A stretch of 5,579 nucleotides of DNA from positions 1 to 5,579 of IMG/VR virus record IMGVR_UViG_3300045988_013358; one strand, 5' to 3'. Within the stretch, counting starts at the first letter, position 1; every line of letters begins with the position of its first letter. The notes under the pieces are model-generated. The model saw nothing but the letters and a program-made list of their open reading frames with translations. It searched no databases and had not been told where the DNA came from. Origin of the DNA: a virus. Below, piece after piece: positions 1 to 5,579 of the stretch. Made by a program: the position numbers and the translations under genes.

Positions 1-89
1 ACACAATCTGCAAAAAATTGAAAGAGTACGAAAGGATTGACAAGGATGATTAAAAGCTATATCATGGACACAGACGCAAACAAAAAAAT
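1..89. repeat. Terminal direct repeat, copy 1. It is identical to 5491..5579 and marks the closure overlap of a circular 5490-nt genome.
   Basis: Base-by-base comparison shows acacaatctgcaaaaaattgaaagagtacgaaaggattgacaaggatgattaaaagctatatcatggacacagacgcaaacaaaaaaat at both ends of the window. Confidence 0.95.
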
Positions 90-438
90 AGGACAATACT
101 TTAAAGTGCGAGAATTCGCGTGCCGAGATGGTTCACAGGTAGTTTTCGTGGACGACTATCTCGTAACTATTTTAGACCTTCTAAGAAGCAAAATCAGAAA
201 ACCAGTAATCGTCACAAGCGGATACAGAACTCCAACATGGAACAAAAAATGCGAAGGAGCAAAATACAGCTATCACATGCGCGGCATGGCTGCAGACATC
301 CGAGTTGATGGGATGAGTCCAAAAGAACTCGCCAACAAACTGAATGCAATCATCCCGGAAGAATGCGGCATTATCGTATACAATGGCTGGATACACTTTG
401 ATGTGCGAGCCGGAAAAAAATACAGAAAGGGGGTGTAA
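46..438 (+). CDS. Peptidase M15 / LAS-family zinc peptidase (D-Ala-D-Ala carboxypeptidase-like, Peptidase_M15_3-like); putative endolysin.
   Basis: The ORF track gives 37..438 from TTG; I prefer ATG 46 (MIKSY...), which has GAAAGGA at 30..36. Motifs: SGYR (217..228), H-x6-D in YHMRGMAAD (His 274..276, Asp 295..297), and WIHFD (His 394..396, Asp 400..402), the typical zinc-ligand set of LAS/M15 enzymes. There is no N-terminal signal peptide or TM segment. Confidence 0.8.
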   Translation: MIKSYIMDTDANKKIGQYFKVREFACRDGSQVVFVDDYLVTILDLLRSKIRKPVIVTSGYRTPTWNKKCEGAKYSYHMRGMAADIRVDGMSPKELANKLNAIIPEECGIIVYNGWIHFDVRAGKKYRKGV

Positions 439-440
439 CA

Positions 441-557
441 ATGGCACACAGAAGCGGTGCAGGCCAAGGCGACCAGAAACGCTTTACCCAGACGGCCAAG
501 CGAGTGAAAAACATTAACGTCCGTCCGAAGGTATCGCGGGGCGGTATCCGATTGTAA
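441..557 (+). CDS. Small basic DNA-binding/packaging protein (gokushovirus VP8 / phiX174 protein J analogue), 38 aa.
   Basis: Below the 60-aa cutoff of the ORF track. ATG 441 lies 2 nt after the peptidase stop, with GGGGGTG upstream. Translation: MAHRSGAGQGDQKRFTQTAKRVKNINVRPKVSRGGIRL. The K/R-rich sequence and C-terminal RGGIRL match the tail I recall from gokushovirus ORF8-type proteins (e.g. ...IMRGGIRF). Confidence 0.7.
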   Translation: MAHRSGAGQGDQKRFTQTAKRVKNINVRPKVSRGGIRL

Positions 558-588
558 GCAATAAAAACCAAAGAAAGGAGGTGACTTA

Positions 589-705
589 ATGGCATTAATC
601 AAAGTCAAGGACGTTAAGGAAGCAATTGCGCTGATGATGAATATCCTCGAAAAGCTTGACGAAATTTACCACGCACTGAAGGATGCAAACAAAGACAAAG
701 AGTAA
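589..705 (+). CDS. Hypothetical small protein, 38 aa, predicted amphipathic helix.
   Basis: ATG 589 follows the best SD in the genome (AAAGGAGGTGA, 574..584). Translation: MALIKVKDVKEAIALMMNILEKLDEIYHALKDANKDKE; stop TAA 703..705. It fills the gap between flanking genes. I recognise no family. Confidence 0.5.
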   Translation: MALIKVKDVKEAIALMMNILEKLDEIYHALKDANKDKE

Positions 706-716
706 AGGAGAAAAAC

Positions 717-971
717 ATGAAACTGAAATTCTACTCATTCCACGATTCACTGACCAATGGCTACTCGCAGCCGTTCCTGCAGAACAACCGGGCACAGGCA
801 GTCCGAACGGCACGATGGAAGGCCAACGAAAGCAAACCGAGTGAAATCGAAGACATCAGTCTGGTAGAACTGGGCGAATTCGACACCGAAAACGGCTACA
901 TGAGCGAAGCAATGCCTGAACACATCGCACGGCTCATCGACCTGAAGGAGACGACCAATGCTAAATCCTGA
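717..971 (+). CDS. VP5: Gokushovirus VP5-like non-structural protein.
   Basis: SD AAGGAG at 705..710 and ATG at 717. The pattern F-Y-S-x-D...QPF...A-x-R...ED-x-x-L-x-ELGEFD-x-x-x-G matches the conserved layout I recall for VP5/ORF5 proteins of Gokushovirinae. Its position directly upstream of VP3 is also typical. Confidence 0.65.
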   Translation: MKLKFYSFHDSLTNGYSQPFLQNNRAQAVRTARWKANESKPSEIEDISLVELGEFDTENGYMSEAMPEHIARLIDLKETTNAKS

Positions 972-1401
972 TACACTGGTAAGGTACTATGGACTGCCGA
1001 CCGAGAGAGTGGCAAACAATCCGGGCAGCAAGACCGCGCCAACGTGGAAAGCAGTCAAGCGACCAAACGGCACAACCGACTACATCCAACAGCCCGATGA
1101 AAACACATATGAGAAAATCCAGCGCGCCGGCGAGGGATACGACCTTGCAAGCGCAATCGCACGACTGGAAGCAGGAGACACCAGTATCAAGGCAAAGAGC
1201 ATGGTATACACCGAAGGAACTGACCTTGAAAATCTGCCGAAGGATATCATGACGATGCACGAAAAGGCCGAGGCAGCAGCCGAAACAATGGAACAGCTGA
1301 AAGAACAGCTGAAACAGAAGCAGCAGACCGAACAGCCAAAGCCGGAAGAGGAAAAGGAAGAAAAAAAGGAAGAGGTGAAGGAAAACGAACCGAAACAGTG
1401 A
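958..1401 (+). CDS. VP3: Internal scaffolding protein VP3-like, with a K/E-rich low-complexity C-terminal tail.
   Basis: SD GAAGGAG at 944..950 and ATG at 958, overlapping the VP5-like gene by 14 nt. It sits directly upstream of the capsid gene. The central segment ENTYEKIQRAGEGYDLASAIARLEAGD resembles the conserved core of gokushovirus VP3 scaffolds. Confidence 0.65.
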   Translation: MLNPDTLVRYYGLPTERVANNPGSKTAPTWKAVKRPNGTTDYIQQPDENTYEKIQRAGEGYDLASAIARLEAGDTSIKAKSMVYTEGTDLENLPKDIMTMHEKAEAAAETMEQLKEQLKQKQQTEQPKPEEEKEEKKEEVKENEPKQ

Positions 1402-1426
1402 GAACCATTTCGCGCAAGTGCCGAGA

Positions 1427-3043
1427 ATGGAACGACCACGAAGCAAGTTTGACCGAAGTCACCAGCTGTTGACGACCATCAACGAAGGTGATTTGGTGCC
1501 CATCTACTGTGATGAAGTACTTCCGGGTGATACCGCGCGAGTACGGCTTAACGGGCTTATCCGTATGAGTACTCCCATCTATCCTATCATGGATAACTGC
1601 TACATGGATACCTATTTCTTCTTTGTTCCGTGCAGACTGCTCTGGGAACACTGGGAGAACATGTTCGGCGAGAACGACACCGATTATTGGGCAGAAAAGA
1701 CCGAATACAGCACGCCGTGGTGTCAAGTCGGCGGCACAAGCGGTCTAGCCAATGGCAGTATTGGAGACTACTTCGGACTGCCGACCGGAGTAAAAAAATC
1801 AATAAAAGTGAACGCGCTGCCGGCACGCGCCTACGCAATGATTTATAACGAGTGGTTCAGGGATGAAAACCTCGAAGCACCATTAATGCTCGGCTATAAA
1901 AAAAGCGATGGTGGAGGAAGCAACACAAACCCGGAAGCAACAAAGACAAGCGCCAACCACCCAAACAACACAACGGACACCAACGAAGCAAACCTCTACG
2001 CAAAAAAACCGGCAAAAGCGGGCAAGTTCCACGACTACTTCACCAGCTGCTTGCCGAAGCCGCTGAAAGCTGACCCGGTGGAAATCGGCCTGACAGGCAA
2101 TGCACCAGTAAAACTGTATAACAATGCAGAGTTAACAACTCAAACAGCAGCATCAACACAGCTAGAGTTAACTAAAAACGGCAGTATGCAGAACTTTTCA
2201 AACGTGATGGGAGTAACCGGACAAGATAAAGGCCAAATTGAAATGAAATTCATGGGCACAGACCTAAGCGGAGTGAACGCAATCAGCATTGCAGACTTGC
2301 GCATGGCAATTGCCTTGCAACACATCTTTGAGGCTGATGCACGCAACGGCACGAGATACCGTGAATTCCTGTCTGGTACGTGGGGCGTGACAAGTCCGGA
2401 CAGCCGTCTGCAGATTCCTGAATACATCGGCGGGCAGCGCATCGCAATCAATGTCAATCAGGTTGTCCAGACAAGCCAGACGGACCCGACAACCGGACAG
2501 GCACTAGGCAATACGGCAGCATACAGCCTGACCACATGCAGCAAGCAGATGGTGGACTATGCAGCAACGGAATACGGCTATATCATCGGCCTGGCAGTGG
2601 TACGAGTAGAGCACAGCTACCAGCAAGGCCTTGCGACCAAATGGACGCGCGGCGGGCGGTTCACCTACTACGACCCGCGACTGGCAGCACTGGGCGAACA
2701 GCCGGTATACAACCGCGAAATCTATGCACAAGGCACACCTGAAGACGAAGAAATCTTCGGCTATCAGGAGGCTTGGGCGGACTACCGCTACAAGCCTTCT
2801 TACGTAACCGGAGAAATGCGGTCTAACTACCAGACAAGTTTGGACGCATGGCATTATGCAGACGATTATGACAAGCTTCCGCGACTCTCGGCAGAGTGGA
2901 TTCAGGAAGGAACACAGAACATTGACCGAACAATTGCAGTGACGAGCGCAAAAAGTCATCAGTTCTTGTGTGACTTCTATTTCACAGAAGACTGGTACCG
3001 CGAGATGCCTATCTACAGCATCCCGGGCATCGAAAGAATTTAA
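1427..3043 (+). CDS. VP1: Major capsid protein VP1 (Microviridae F-protein family).
   Basis: The N-terminus RSKFDRSHQLLTTINEGDLVPIYCDEVLPGDT is the hallmark start of microvirus major capsid proteins. The length (about 540 aa) fits gokushovirus VP1. The start is ambiguous: ATG 1427 (chosen) or in-frame GTG 1418 (ORF track), and neither has a strong SD. Stop is TAA 3041..3043. Confidence 0.92.
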   Translation: MERPRSKFDRSHQLLTTINEGDLVPIYCDEVLPGDTARVRLNGLIRMSTPIYPIMDNCYMDTYFFFVPCRLLWEHWENMFGENDTDYWAEKTEYSTPWCQVGGTSGLANGSIGDYFGLPTGVKKSIKVNALPARAYAMIYNEWFRDENLEAPLMLGYKKSDGGGSNTNPEATKTSANHPNNTTDTNEANLYAKKPAKAGKFHDYFTSCLPKPLKADPVEIGLTGNAPVKLYNNAELTTQTAASTQLELTKNGSMQNFSNVMGVTGQDKGQIEMKFMGTDLSGVNAISIADLRMAIALQHIFEADARNGTRYREFLSGTWGVTSPDSRLQIPEYIGGQRIAINVNQVVQTSQTDPTTGQALGNTAAYSLTTCSKQMVDYAATEYGYIIGLAVVRVEHSYQQGLATKWTRGGRFTYYDPRLAALGEQPVYNREIYAQGTPEDEEIFGYQEAWADYRYKPSYVTGEMRSNYQTSLDAWHYADDYDKLPRLSAEWIQEGTQNIDRTIAVTSAKSHQFLCDFYFTEDWYREMPIYSIPGIERI

Positions 3044-3053
3044 GGAAGGAGGA

Positions 3054-3079
3054 AGCCCCGCAAAAGCGGGGCTATTTTT
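3054..3079 (+). terminator. Rho-independent terminator/attenuator between VP1 and VP2.
   Basis: An 8-bp GC-rich stem, AGCCCCGC (3054..3061) with GCGGGGCT (3066..3073), has an AAAA loop and is followed by ATTTTT (3074..3079). Confidence 0.8.
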
Positions 3080-3081
3080 GA

Positions 3082-3939
3082 ATGGAAACGTTATTAAAGC
3101 TTTTGCCATCCCTCATGCAAGGACTGAGCATGCTAACAGGCATCATAACAAGCAGTAACCAGAGCGGCGCCAAGAACAGCCAAGGAGCCGGCAGCGAAAG
3201 CAGCACCGGCAGCGAGACCACGACCGGCAGCGTAACAGGACCACAGCAGATAGGTGCAACACAAATCAGCACGCCAACAGGCGTAACAACGTTCGGGAAT
3301 CAGAGCAGCGTAAACACCGCAAACGCACTGCAAATGATGAGCGGACTGCTGAGCAACCTCGCGAATGCTGGAAGCCAAGCGAGCGCCAAGAAGTACAACA
3401 GCGCAGAAGCAGCAGCAGAACGAGCATTCCAAAAGGAAATGCGCGGGACAGCCTATCAGGATACCGTGAAAGACATGATTGCAGCAGGCATCAATCCTAT
3501 TCTGGCAGCGACCAACGGCGCAACAAGCGCACCATCGGGAGCATCTGCAAGCATTGGAAGCCAACATTATAACCAGCAGAGCGCACAAGCTGCAAGCGTA
3601 TCCGCAATGTACGAATACGGCAACAATACAGCAGAGCTGGCAGACAGATACTTACAGCTAGCAAAACAGGCCACCAGCGCAAAACAATTCAAGAGTGCGA
3701 AAAGCTGGGAACAGGCAGCGAGCGAGCTGGCAACCTCAAGCGCAAAACAGGCGCAACAGTACACCTATGCAGCTAGCAAGTTAGGTGCAGGCCTTGCGGG
3801 AGCTGGTAAAGCAGCCAAAGACGCAGTAAAAGAGGCTGGTAAAGCAGCCAAAGACACAGCAGGAAACTTCAAAAAGTACAACCAAAGAGTGCCAATCATG
3901 CCAAACATGGACACATTCAACGCATACAGAGGAGACTAA
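3082..3939 (+). CDS. VP2: Minor capsid / DNA pilot protein VP2.
   Basis: It lies downstream of VP1. It has a Gly/Ser/Thr/Ala/Gln-rich low-complexity composition. The motif AERAFQKEMRGTAYQDTVKDMIAAGINPILA matches the conserved motif of gokushovirus VP2 (...TAYQR...DM..AGLNP.LA). Confidence 0.85.
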   Translation: METLLKLLPSLMQGLSMLTGIITSSNQSGAKNSQGAGSESSTGSETTTGSVTGPQQIGATQISTPTGVTTFGNQSSVNTANALQMMSGLLSNLANAGSQASAKKYNSAEAAAERAFQKEMRGTAYQDTVKDMIAAGINPILAATNGATSAPSGASASIGSQHYNQQSAQAASVSAMYEYGNNTAELADRYLQLAKQATSAKQFKSAKSWEQAASELATSSAKQAQQYTYAASKLGAGLAGAGKAAKDAVKEAGKAAKDTAGNFKKYNQRVPIMPNMDTFNAYRGD

Positions 3940-3945
3940 GAAAGG

Positions 3946-3975
3946 AAGGGGGATGGTAAAACATCCCCCTTTTTT
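3946..3975 (+). terminator. Strong rho-independent terminator ending the structural operon.
   Basis: A 10-bp stem, AAGGGGGATG (3946..3955) with CATCCCCCTT (3962..3971), has a GTAAAA loop. A T6 run occupies 3970..3975, 7 nt after the VP2 stop. Confidence 0.9.
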
Positions 3976-4002
3976 AGTAACAATAATCCAAAAAATAGAG
4001 AT

Positions 4003-4026
4003 TGTGGAAAACTTGAGTTTTCAACA
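4003..4026 (+). promoter_or_regulatory. Hairpin whose stem contains a consensus DnaA box (TTTTCCACA on the - strand); candidate single-strand initiation / complementary-strand origin element.
   Basis: TGTGGAAAAC (4003..4012) and GTTTTCAACA (4017..4026) form a 10-bp inverted repeat with one G/A mismatch and a TTGA loop. The reverse complement of 4003..4011 is TTTTCCACA, which fits the DnaA box TTWTNCACA. The function is inferred, not demonstrated. Confidence 0.4.
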
Positions 4027-4191
4027 CTTTCAACAGGTTTTCAACAACAAGTTGCACAAAGAAATTCGTCATAATGACGAACATTCAACAATTCAACAAG
4101 TTTTCAACAAAGTTTTCAACAGGCAAAAAGACAATAAATAAACGTAGAAACGTTAAAAAAATAAAAAAACGAGTTTTCAACAGTTTCAACA
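4017..4191 (+). repeat. Array of nine same-orientation TTCAACA repeats (five extended to GTTTTCAACA) in three clusters; iteron-like protein-binding sites.
   Basis: TTCAACA starts at 4020, 4029, 4040 | 4084, 4092, 4103, 4115 | 4176, 4185. Full GTTTTCAACA copies are at 4017, 4037, 4100, 4112 and 4173. Spacings of 8-12 nt are not multiples of 3, which argues for a DNA-level rather than a coding repeat. Confidence 0.85.
4065..4081. repeat. Perfect palindrome TTCGTCAT-A-ATGACGAA between repeat clusters 1 and 2.
   Basis: The 8-nt arms at 4065..4072 and 4074..4081 are exact reverse complements. Each arm contains TGACGAA (TGNCGAA) read outward on its strand. Confidence 0.8.
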
Positions 4192-4210
4192 CTACTACTA
4201 CTACTACTAC
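4191..4210. repeat. Trinucleotide microsatellite (ACT)6 plus AC in non-coding DNA.
   Basis: Positions 4191..4210 read actactactactactactac, directly abutting the ninth TTCAACA copy. Confidence 0.9.
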
Positions 4211-4243
4211 AACAAGTTAATATAAAAAGAAAGCGAGGTGTCA

Positions 4244-4278
4244 ACCGGCACAAGATAGACAAGGAAGCTTGTGCCGGT
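4244..4278 (+). promoter_or_regulatory. Perfect 11-bp stem-loop overlapping the rep translation-initiation region; translational control element and/or origin hairpin.
   Basis: ACCGGCACAAG (4244..4254) pairs with CTTGTGCCGGT (4268..4278). The 13-nt loop ATAGACAAGGAAG contains the only SD-like sequence for rep (AAGGAAG, 4261..4267). Candidate GTG start 4271 lies in the 3' arm, and ATG 4286 is 7 nt downstream of the stem. Confidence 0.6.
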
Positions 4279-4285
4279 AACAAAA

Positions 4286-5275
4286 ATGCCATGTACAAAA
4301 CCATTAGTATTTCAGATGGACACGAAAAAACCACAACTGTGGGGAAGTCTGGAGAACCTATCAAAGCAAGGACTGCAAGCGGACATCATGGACGGAATAA
4401 AAAAAGGAAAGTTCGCGTTGTTACCATGCGGTAAGTGCGAGTACTGCCGAAAACAGATGGCTGACCAATGGGCAACCAGAATAGAGCTAGAAGCCAAAGA
4501 GTGGGACGATGTGATTTTTCTGACACTAACTTATGATGATGAGCACATACCTTATGGTGAAATCGTCAAAGGATACCAAAGCATCCAAAGCCAGACGGTA
4601 AGCAAACGAGACGTGCAGCTATTTCTGAAACGGCTACGAAAAGCATACAAAAAACCGATAAAGTATTTCCTAGCAGCTGAATATGGTGACAGAACAAAAA
4701 GACCACACTATCACGCAATAGTGTTCGGACTGAAACCACCAGATGCACAATGGTATAAAAACCAAAAAGGCAACAGCTATTTCAAAAGCGAGTGGCTGCA
4801 AAAAATCTGGGGCAAAGGCATGATAGACTTTTCACCAGCACAGCCAGGCAGCTTTGCATACGTAGCGCAATACGTCAACAAAAAAGCCATAGGCGCAGAG
4901 CAAGCGGCAAAATACTGGATGGAAGGCAGAGAACCTGAATTTAGAATCATGTCGAAAGGTATCGGAGAAAAGTATCTAAACGAACACAAAGATGAAATCT
5001 TAAAAACAGATAACATCATATGCGCAGGAGGACGCGAGAAAAGGCCTCCACGCTATTTTGATAAGATTCTAGATAAGGATACCAACAAAGACACAGAAAG
5101 CTATTTTAGGGCACATTCTGACGAGCTGAGAGAGGTAAGAGCCAGACGCAGACGCAGTGCAGTACAAAGTTTGGTCAATCTCGAACAAAGCACGAGCGTA
5201 GATTATGAAACCTATCTAAACATTCAGAAAGAAAAGGACAAGCTAAAGCAAAAGTGGCGTGAACCGAAAACATGA
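4286..5275 (+). CDS. VP4: Replication initiation protein VP4 (HUH rolling-circle endonuclease, phiX174 protein A family).
   Basis: RCR motif 1 is FLTLTY (4517..4534). Motif 2 is HYH in PHYHAIVFG (4706..4714). Motif 3 is YVAQYVNKK with two catalytic Tyr (4859..4861 and 4871..4873), almost identical to phiX174 A YVAKYVNKK. There is a Cys-rich PCGKCEYCR element. ATG 4286 gives MPCTKPL..., matching the M-x-C-x-x-P N-terminus I recall for gokushovirus Reps. GTG 4271 (ORF track) is an in-frame alternative with better SD spacing. Confidence 0.9.
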   Translation: MPCTKPLVFQMDTKKPQLWGSLENLSKQGLQADIMDGIKKGKFALLPCGKCEYCRKQMADQWATRIELEAKEWDDVIFLTLTYDDEHIPYGEIVKGYQSIQSQTVSKRDVQLFLKRLRKAYKKPIKYFLAAEYGDRTKRPHYHAIVFGLKPPDAQWYKNQKGNSYFKSEWLQKIWGKGMIDFSPAQPGSFAYVAQYVNKKAIGAEQAAKYWMEGREPEFRIMSKGIGEKYLNEHKDEILKTDNIICAGGREKRPPRYFDKILDKDTNKDTESYFRAHSDELREVRARRRRSAVQSLVNLEQSTSVDYETYLNIQKEKDKLKQKWREPKT

Positions 5276-5410
5276 CGCGCACAGCGCTAAAAAGGAAGAT
5301 TTTATTAAGCCGAGTTCCGCCTTAGCTCCACACGGCAGAGCGCTAAAGCGCCTTTCAAAACAAAGGAGCAAGAAAAAGGGTTACAAAATTATTACAAAGT
5401 GCAAAAAACA

Positions 5411-5439
5411 TTAAAAAACATATTGACATCTGATAAAAT
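5411..5439 (+). promoter_or_regulatory. Candidate sigma70/SigA-type promoter with an extended -10, driving the peptidase-to-VP2 operon.
   Basis: TTAAAA (5411..5416, 4/6 match to TTGACA), a 17-nt spacer, then TGaTAAAAT (TG at 5431..5432, -10 TAAAAT at 5434..5439). Phased A-tracts (AAAAAACAT twice, at 5403 and 5413) overlap or precede it. It lies about 30 nt upstream of the first SD of the operon. Confidence 0.45.
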
Positions 5440-5463
5440 TAAATCAGAAAAAGAAAGAGAGGT

Positions 5464-5487
5464 GAACACCATGGAGAACACCATGGA
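5464..5487 (+). repeat. Perfect 12-bp tandem duplication GAACACCATGGA x2.
   Basis: Positions 5464..5475 equal 5476..5487. The duplication creates two in-frame ATGs (5471 and 5483). Confidence 0.9.
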
Positions 5488-5530
5488 CAAACACAATCTG
5501 CAAAAAATTGAAAGAGTACGAAAGGATTGA
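5471..5530 (+). CDS. Possible 19-aa upstream/leader ORF spanning the circular junction (equivalent to 5471..5490 plus 1..40).
   Basis: SD GAGAGGTGA at 5457..5465 and ATG at 5471. Translation: MENTMDKHNLQKIERVRKD. Stop TGA 5528..5530 (38..40 in copy 1) lies 5 nt before the peptidase ATG and overlaps its SD region. It is too short to call coding from sequence alone. Confidence 0.3.
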   Translation: MENTMDKHNLQKIERVRKD

Positions 5531-5535
5531 CAAGG

Positions 5536-5579
5536 ATGATTAAAAGCTATATCATGGACACAGACGCAAACAAAAAAAT
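5536..5579 (+). CDS. Duplicate 5' end of the peptidase gene, truncated by the window edge. This is an artefact of the terminal redundancy, not a second gene.
   Basis: Positions 5536..5579 are identical to 46..89. Confidence 0.85.
   Translation, partial: MIKSYIMDTDANKK

Follow-up and report, generated by a model that had tools for sequence, protein, structure and literature searches.

A conserved gokushovirus element with the sequence organization of a bacterial DnaA-assembly and unwinding region

Why would a gokushovirus keep nine direct repeats in the non-coding DNA between its VP2 and VP4 genes? We addressed this question in IMG/VR virus record IMGVR_UViG_3300045988_013358, of which we analysed one stretch of 5,579 nucleotides (positions 1 to 5,579; hereafter the window). 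A first-pass annotation, made from the letters alone, had described an iteron-like array of TTCAACA repeats in this gap and had named the phage Rep, host DnaA or a host response regulator as candidate binders. We find that the array belongs to a longer, ordered element at 4003–4232, which is probably a copy or mimic, carried by the phage, of that portion of a Firmicutes-type (dnaA–dnaN) chromosomal origin in which DnaA assembles and basal unwinding takes place. Its organization suggests that such an oriC mimic would recruit host DnaA to the double-stranded replicative form of the phage.

Repeat array and putative unwinding module

The heptamer TTCAACA occurs nine times in the window, always on the + strand and always within 4020–4191, with starts at 4020, 4029 and 4040, at 4084, 4092, 4103 and 4115, and at 4176 and 4185; shuffled sequence yields a mean of 0.99 copies and a maximum of 4. 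Five copies lengthen to GTTTTCAACA (4017–4026, 4037–4046, 4100–4109, 4112–4121 and 4173–4182), and start-to-start spacing inside the three clusters is 9 and 11, then 8, 11 and 12, then 9 nt. The degenerate motif TTWTCMACA is matched six times against 0.23 expected. The coordinates thus bear out the same-strand 3 + 4 + 2 clustering, the five extended copies and the 8–12-nt spacing that the first-pass annotation had reported.

The region is also non-coding, as proposed. Neither of the two open reading frames (ORFs) that overlap it matches a Pfam family, and among 39 close relatives the ORF at 4074–4220 is intact in none and that at 3953–4141 in 18, on which grounds a protein-coding ORF in the gap was rejected. 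A conserved, intact ORF in relatives was the observation that had been named in advance as speaking against the array, and it was sought here with a negative outcome. A known RNA family was rejected as well, no Rfam family reaching threshold in the region. Two details need correction. VP4 most likely starts at ATG 4286 rather than at GTG 4271, and the gap therefore spans 3940–4285 and measures 346 nt instead of 331. An abrupt switch to T-rich DNA had been described; the gap region is indeed A+T-rich (GC content 0.30–0.36 versus about 0.45–0.55 elsewhere) and relatively rich in T, yet A remains the more frequent of the two bases (AT skew +0.28).

Three features had been overlooked, namely an inverted DnaA box, a (CTA)6 run and an A+T-rich stretch at 4210–4232. 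The element begins with the inverted box at 4003–4011, where the − strand reads TTTTCCACA, a full match to TTWTNCACA, and the + strand reads TGTGGAAAA; in this latter form the box is found in about 36% of the 142 distinct gokushovirus elements that we compared. Box cluster 1 follows on the + strand at 4018–4046, with TTTTCAACA at 4018–4026, CTTTCAACA at 4027–4035 and TTTTCAACA again at 4038–4046, and its columns are at least 90% conserved in 31 representatives with mutual identity below 80%. Spacer 1 (4047–4081) holds the palindrome TTCGTCAT-A-ATGACGAA at 4065–4081; its sequence differs by clade and its hairpin potential recurs. Box cluster 2 (4082–4121, + strand), whose four boxes have cores at 4084, 4092, 4103 and 4115, includes the near-invariant 19-mer TTCAACAWTTCAACAAGTT, and its box at 4101–4109 is a perfect TTATCCACA in 25 of the 142 elements. 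Beyond an A+T-rich spacer 2 (4122–4173), a tandem pair of + strand boxes—TTTTCAACA at 4174–4182 and GTTTCAACA at 4183–4191—abuts six DnaA-trios, a perfect (CTA)6 run at 4192–4209 that reads 5'-TAG-3' (3'-GAT-5') on the − strand. In scaffold form, box pair and trios are GAGTTTTCAACAGTTTCAACA + (CTA)6. Directly after the trios stands CAACAAGTTA, a phage-specific and near-invariant motif, followed by A+T-rich DNA; this last stretch (4210–4232, 83% A+T) is the presumed unwinding element.

Some variation within the element was also recorded. Spacer 2 contains a small palindrome, AACGT-agaa-ACGTT (4140–4153), and an 8-nt genome-specific insertion, ATAAAAAA at 4160–4167, which is a duplication in an A run and is seen in none of the close relatives listed. 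At the spacer palindrome sites other clades have different sequences that retain hairpin potential (TGCACAAA..TTTGTGCA; ACGC..GCGT), and another factor may have its sites here. Even near-identical genomes differ in the length of the CTA run (3–6 units), in the manner of a microsatellite.

The order of parts at the right-hand end is that of the basal unwinding system (BUS) of bacterial oriC, which combines a DnaA-box pair, a GC spacer, DnaA-trios and A+T-rich DNA (as in B. subtilis incC; PMC6669920, PMC8287927). Published search rules for the BUS call for a box with no more than 2 mismatches, which a tandem box with up to 4 mismatches may accompany, for a spacer no longer than 16 bp that commonly comprises the second box and about 4 GC-rich bases, and for three or more trios (3'-NAN-5') of consensus 3'-GAT-5' (PMC8287927). 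In the window, TTTTCAACA at 4174–4182 has 2 mismatches to TTATCCACA and lies 9 nt before the first CTA, and the tandem GTTTCAACA at 4183–4191 has 3; in relatives the second box is TTTCCACA, abutting the first directly. All six trios are perfect and lie 3' of the box on the strand opposite the box-reading strand, at least three CTA units are present in 129 of the 142 elements, and the A+T-rich DNA that comes next does so equally in relatives and in the bacterial loci described below.

Polarity and spacing agree at the same level of detail. Trios are oriented relative to boxes as they are at R1 of E. coli oriC and in the tested BUS scaffolds; in E. coli oriC the strand reading TTATCCACA runs on into CTAATAAGA, which is 100% identical in 5419 genomes. 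The commonest phage version, TTTTCAACT-TTTCCACA-GCCC-CTACTACTAC, can be set beside the tested scaffolds of S. aureus, TTATCCACC-AATCCACA-GCAC-CTACTACTATTACTA (its trio part also written CTACTACTA), and S. elongatus, TTTTCCACA-TTTTCCACA-GCCC-CTACTACTAC (its trio part also written CTACTAC), and beside the C. difficile trio sequence CACCTACTACTATTACTACTATGA (PMC7561715). Most phage clades other than that of the window have a 4-nt GC-rich spacer (GCCC, CTCC or ACCT). Measured from where the upstream box starts, the first CTA comes after 21 nt in the majority of phage elements, which matches S. aureus and L. monocytogenes; in the window it comes after 18 nt, with the triplet phase unchanged.

Conservation among gokushoviruses and counterparts in bacterial origins

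Aligning the intergenic regions of related gokushoviruses had been suggested as a check on the array, and this comparison reveals boxes and layout that are conserved across all 142 distinct elements: a module of ~230 nt recurs, in some cases alongside Reps that are 32–44% and capsids that are 38–48% identical. The region matches 42 GenBank phage records at 70–95% identity (a whole-genome megablast returns 8 records), and a scan of IMG/VR with the 19-mer TTCAACAWTTCAACAAGTT yields at least 120 stretches, 116 of the 120 listed being on microvirus contigs. Matches to the 19-mer in four larger viral contigs (L092, L114, L144 and L169) lie inside coding DNA and were discarded as chance. The common architecture comprises 3–4 boxes, a spacer, 4 boxes, an A+T-rich spacer, the box pair, the 4-nt GC-rich spacer (not in the window's clade), (CTA)3–6, CTACAACAAGTTA and A+T-rich DNA. 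The boxes, the trios and CAACAAGTTA account for the columns that reach at least 90% conservation; spacers vary (31 representatives less than 80% identical, mean 54%). In blastn against 79 distant genomes (VP1 less than 50% identical), which were selected for holding the 19-mer and in which a seed at the element was therefore guaranteed, the element region aligns in a mean of 58.6 genomes and any other 250-nt window in at most 20. The module is the best-conserved DNA in these genomes.

Pooled over the 142 elements, the boxes give the matrix N-T-T-T-C-[A 0.81 / C 0.19]-A-C-A, in which 8 of the 9 positions agree with the DnaA box, A and C being alternates at position 6; relatives carry TTATCCACA or TTTTCCACA at homologous positions. 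The same matrix bears on Spo0A or another response regulator, a host factor that could instead control a VP4 promoter through the array. TGTTGAA, the complement of the repeat, is one mismatch from the 0A box, and the array of the window precedes VP4. However, G has a frequency of 0 at box position 6, so the complement is never the C that TGTCGAA needs; no sigma-70-like promoter was found within 3940–4285; and the majority of genomes have an inverted array that follows VP4. We therefore consider a response-regulator site, one of the binders put forward at first pass, highly improbable.

Closely similar arrangements exist in bacterial chromosomes. A scan for TTTTCMACA-N4-CTACTACTAC covered 185,579 species at one genome per species, and this 23-nt box-N4-trio pattern appears in at least 120 bacterial contigs versus about 9 expected by our own calculation (18 fixed bases plus one two-fold position, over 1.2e12 positions). 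The matches are flanked by more same-sense boxes upstream and by A+T-rich DNA downstream. Of five loci tested with Pfam, four have the match between DnaA and DnaN genes—in Ruminococcus sp. RGIG7051 (L219), Lachnospira multipara ATCC 19207 (L209), an Eubacteriales metagenome-assembled genome (MAG; L249) and a Clostridia MAG (L201)—and the fifth (L268) has it upstream of dnaN only. A profile of the phage element aligns near end to end, and collinearly, with L249 (E 2e-19) and L268 (E 7e-19); other bacterial origins match the profile in the BUS part only. On the viral side, the BUS pattern is found in 113 stretches among 2.9 million viral contigs, and the matches listed are nearly all on microvirus-size contigs of 4–6 kb, with four on longer ones. 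As a separate observation, a 71-kb Prevotella sp. MAG contig (JAFTFC010000001.1) carries box-GACC-(CTA)3 with identical flanks twice (L208 and L245), about 40 kb apart.

Near full-length collinearity with two Clostridia origins might also be expected of a host oriC fragment that was gained by recombination and has no function. This explanation is extremely improbable: the element is kept in single copy across capsid identities of 38–48% as the most conserved DNA of its genomes, it carries phage-specific invariant motifs (the 19-mer and CAACAAGTTA), and in one genome, L020 (see below), it was replaced after loss.

The box sequence itself bears on the host. Among the bacterial matches listed, origins with at least three TTCAACA all come from Clostridia (Ruminococcus, Acutalibacteraceae and unclassified Clostridia or Eubacteriales) of gut or rumen, and Cyanobacteria, Acidobacteriota and other groups have TTCCACA. 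TTCAACA density reaches 14–33 per kb in four Clostridia spacers versus 0–1.6 per kb in their flanks. At 14 loci, TTCAACA-rich origins lie beside a DnaA with the recognition helix DHST[IV][IV]Y, and loci with this helix total 52 TTCAACA versus 23 TTCCACA, as compared with roughly 8 versus 150 for the canonical helix. TTCCACA origins were seen to pair with DHTTVxH or DHTTVxY. The DnaA-box dialect may thus co-vary with the DnaA recognition helix in Ruminococcus-like Clostridia, and the TTTTCAACA dialect of the phage boxes, together with the collinearity with dnaA–dnaN origins, points to Ruminococcus-like Clostridia as the putative hosts. Among the candidate binders, host DnaA is the one that is strongly supported, by the box matrix, by TTATCCACA and TTTTCCACA in relatives, by the trios and by the shared grammar of Clostridia dnaA–dnaN spacers.

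Orientation, hairpin coupling and a possible mechanism

Close to the A+T-rich end of the module, GTGTCA and a hairpin occupy 4238–4278 on the + strand, with a stem at 4244–4254 / 4268–4278 and the loop ATAGACAAGGAAG. A hairpin preceding rep had already been noted, and it is real, its 11 bp being 100% complementary. GTGTCA plus hairpin recurs in 99 of 104 distinct genomes, invariably on the gene-sense strand and either shortly before the VP4 start or shortly after the VP4 stop. The stems fall into at least six families with full compensatory change, and the loop core is conserved as TATCAAG(T/A)A or ATAGACAAG. We regard the hairpin as a candidate rolling-circle (+) origin or Rep nick site.

Several smaller observations concern this site. 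Besides the loop ATAGACAAGGAAG, CAACAAGTTAAT was named among sequences for the candidate Rep origin. CAAG is common to the hairpin loop and CAACAAGTTA and was considered as a Rep nick mark, for which it is too short to carry any claim. Many relatives (L055 at 1880–1925, L056 at 1120–1170, L058 at 1700–1745 and L060 at 1720–1765) have, in the interval that separates the GTGTCA hairpin from the A+T-rich end of the module, a second, long hairpin of alternating CG/CA (such as CGCGCGTGCGCGCGTGCGCGC...GCGCGTGTGCGCACGTGCG), which the window lacks and which could form Z-DNA or a cruciform.

The module itself is not fixed relative to the genes. It runs in the same sense as VP1 in 30 genomes and is inverted in 82, and it lies between VP2 and VP4 in window-like genomes and after VP4 in most others; Rep identity to the window is 38–98% in the same-sense group and 32–44% (median 36%) in the inverted group. 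What is retained is its relation to the hairpin: the A+T-rich end points towards the gene-sense hairpin in 92 of 94 genomes, on either side, and the median distance between the two is 20 nt for same-sense modules and 83 nt for inverted ones. A natural swap is found in L020, whose VP4 is 96% identical to that of the window. There the module is cleanly missing from the VP2–VP4 gap, and a module of another clade (KT264791-type) stands inverted directly after the VP4 stop, with the whole VP4 gene between module and hairpin (the recombinant sites are L020 470–600 and 1577–1815). The swap shows the module to be discrete and exchangeable, with one copy kept.

These arrangements weigh on the idea that the repeats are iterons for Rep (VP4) beside a stem-loop origin, as in circular Rep-encoding single-stranded (CRESS) DNA viruses and rolling-circle plasmids. 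The window does have direct repeats near a hairpin and rep, and the first-pass annotation had likened its layout to such origins. Yet the boxes stay identical next to Reps that are 32–44% identical where repeats and Rep would co-vary, canonical TTATCCACA substitutes at box positions, and the array, inverted relative to rep and hairpin in most genomes, occurs on either side of the nick-site stem-loop and in either orientation where iterons would hold a fixed place. Moreover, the same arrays occur in the dnaA–dnaN spacers of bacterial chromosomes, which have no Rep. Rep iterons are accordingly very unlikely.

The module might alternatively serve the incoming single strand as a complementary-strand origin, with box hairpins that bind DnaA and load helicase and primase. 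The ABC primosome at the M13 A-site offers a precedent (PMC6127211), and predicted pairing of 4003–4015 with 4097–4110 would give a near-duplex box. Against this, folding of the region exceeds that of shuffled sequence by a small margin (z −2.0 and −1.7), so that strong single-strand structure is doubtful; only about 36% of elements have the inverted box at all; the trio-adjacent boxes have no pairing partner; and, because the module occurs in both orientations relative to the genes, the packaged strand would differ in sequence. We judge such an origin quite unlikely. Independence of orientation and weak single-strand folding argue instead for action on the duplex replicative form.

A further possibility is that the boxes act as a sponge that titrates host DnaA, as datA does, and stops or retimes host initiation while the phage DNA stays unopened. 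A replicative form present in many copies, each with nine to eleven boxes, would suit such a role, and box clusters outside oriC are reported to regulate initiation in B. subtilis (PMC3245932). A decoy, however, needs boxes alone, whereas the phase of box pair, spacer and trios and the A+T-rich end are conserved here, and the A+T-rich end is placed beside the hairpin. Titration as the function is unlikely, although it could arise as a side effect. The conserved trio phase and A+T-rich end argue for opening beyond mere binding, and the module's place beside the sense-strand hairpin points to a role of the opened DNA in initiation at that site.

For the oriC-like reading we propose the following course of events. 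Host DnaA-ATP would occupy the ten boxes on the double-stranded replicative form, and the box pair at 4174–4191 would seed a DnaA filament on the (TAG)6 trios of the − strand. The filament would open the A+T-rich DNA at 4210–4232, about 20 nt from the GTGTCA hairpin before rep. The opened DNA might then load host helicase and primosome for replicative-form synthesis, supply the HUH Rep with a single-stranded substrate at the hairpin, or do both.

Several points weigh against this reading. A at box position 6 is not the base of the classical consensus, and neither the window nor its close clade has the GC-rich spacer of ~4 bp, the window having a CTA unit there instead. L125, L156, MG945447 and L020 are exceptions to the hairpin coupling, and genome counts overstate the number of independent events because the genomes are related to each other. 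The bacterial origins were selected by the search pattern, which leaves room for the TTCAACA dialect outside Clostridia, and microviruses of Gram-positive bacteria are barely documented. Replication of phiX174 needs no DnaA, and we know of no microvirus precedent for its use. Finally, what the sequences show directly is the grammar with its spacing and polarity, its deep conservation, its bacterial counterpart and the coupling of A+T-rich end and hairpin; DnaA binding, unwinding, the downstream use of opened DNA and the host are inferred from them.

A more far-reaching version holds that the phage has two replication modes, a DnaA-driven, mini-chromosome-like replicative form gated by the host cell cycle, and Rep with its hairpin used only for packaging strands. 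We offer it as a tentative and rather doubtful extension. If it were true, a phage without an integrase could persist as a plasmid-like episome in gut Clostridia, and the box dialect would be a readable host tag for uncultured microviruses.

The genome around the element is that of a gokushovirus. Window positions 1–89 are repeated directly at 5491–5579, and this 89-nt terminal redundancy indicates a circular, complete genome of 5490 nt. It encodes an M15 peptidase (37–438), ORF5 (717–971), the scaffold protein VP3 (958–1401), the capsid protein VP1 (1418–3043), VP2 (3082–3939) and, on the + strand, the rolling-circle Rep VP4 (4286–5275; 329 amino acids, REP_ORF2-G2P domain). A terminator-like hairpin with a T run follows VP2 on the + strand (3946–3975) and forms the left edge of the non-coding region. 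The best sigma-70-like promoter, TTGACA-17-TATCAT, is at the start of the M15 peptidase ORF (37–65) and is duplicated in the terminal redundancy. The M15 peptidase has more than 1000 homologues at E <= 1e-10, and the best 120 gave no host clue, all being on contigs of at most 9.3 kb that are mostly of microvirus size. A peptidoglycan peptidase is an unusual lysis gene in a microvirus and would suit a thick-walled host.

Comparison with known origins and DnaA-box arrays

With the BUS of bacterial oriC, the phage element shares box polarity, tandem boxes of 9 + 8 nt, at least three trios followed by A+T-rich DNA, upstream same-sense boxes and, in relatives, the 4-nt GC-rich spacer and 21-nt offset. 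It differs in residing on a 5.5-kb single-stranded-DNA rolling-circle phage away from dnaA and dnaN, in the CTA unit that replaces the GC spacer in the window, and in having CAACAAGTTA after the trios and a Rep-proximal hairpin adjoining it. The dnaA–dnaN origins of Clostridia (L219, L249, L268 and L294) have in common with it the TTTTCAACA dialect, boxes 9–11 nt apart and a box pair-GCCC-(CTA)4 end; their spacers differ in being 340–790 nt long, in lacking the 19-mer and CAACAAGTTA and in being flanked by dnaA and dnaN. The phage element, located in the VP2–VP4 gap of a circular phage genome of 5490 nt, falls outside the definition of a chromosomal oriC; it would work like an oriC or mimic one and is not itself an oriC.

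Known rolling-circle origins offer partial likenesses. CRESS-DNA virus and rolling-circle plasmid origins likewise have direct repeats near a hairpin and an HUH Rep gene, but their iterons co-vary with Rep and are fixed in orientation, neither of which holds for the phage element. The comparison also took in the phiX174 origin and the complementary-strand origins of phiX174 and G4. phiX174 belongs to the same virus family and also replicates by rolling circle with an HUH Rep; its 30-nt origin, however, lies inside gene A, and it uses the PriA primosome, not DnaA. An origin of phiX174 type was rejected for our phage, CAACTTGATATTAATAAC having no match within 3 mismatches.

Mobile replicons that use host DnaA are well known. 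DnaA boxes assist the initiators of P1 oriR, pSC101, F, R6K and RK2, and these share with the phage element the principle of a mobile replicon that borrows host DnaA beside its own Rep. They replicate by the theta mode and combine Rep iterons with one to a few boxes, whereas the phage element has a full oriC-style array with trios on a rolling-circle phage; to our knowledge, no trios have been described for any of them. T5-like phages have eight DnaA boxes in their injection-stop region, which were called reminiscent of oriC (bioRxiv 10.1101/866236). Conserved, ordered DnaA boxes in phage non-coding DNA, including TTATCAACA-type variants, are thus common to T5 and the gokushoviruses. T5 differs in its double-stranded DNA, in boxes that lie in inverted repeats with no trios or unwinding module described, and in the role proposed for its boxes, which is injection arrest and not replication.

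Our literature search, incomplete as it is, found only incidental co-mentions and nothing that links DnaA boxes, DnaA-trios or oriC to Microviridae or gokushoviruses; this agrees with the first-pass statement that no such microvirus element had been described, although an earlier description is possible. A box-trio unwinding module is not known from the P1, plasmid and T5 precedents, and no single-stranded-DNA phage with rolling-circle replication is among them. If our reading is true, the phage would be the first of the microviruses, and of single-stranded-DNA phages that replicate by rolling circle, shown to have a complete DnaA-box and DnaA-trio unwinding module, and it would provide a testable handle on the hosts and life style of abundant gut gokushoviruses. 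Being small, modular, independent of orientation and rich in natural variants (the swap, the inversions and 3–6 trios), the module is a convenient natural system for studying BUS function, and it would join two modes of initiation usually seen as alternatives, duplex opening by a host initiator and nicking by an HUH Rep.

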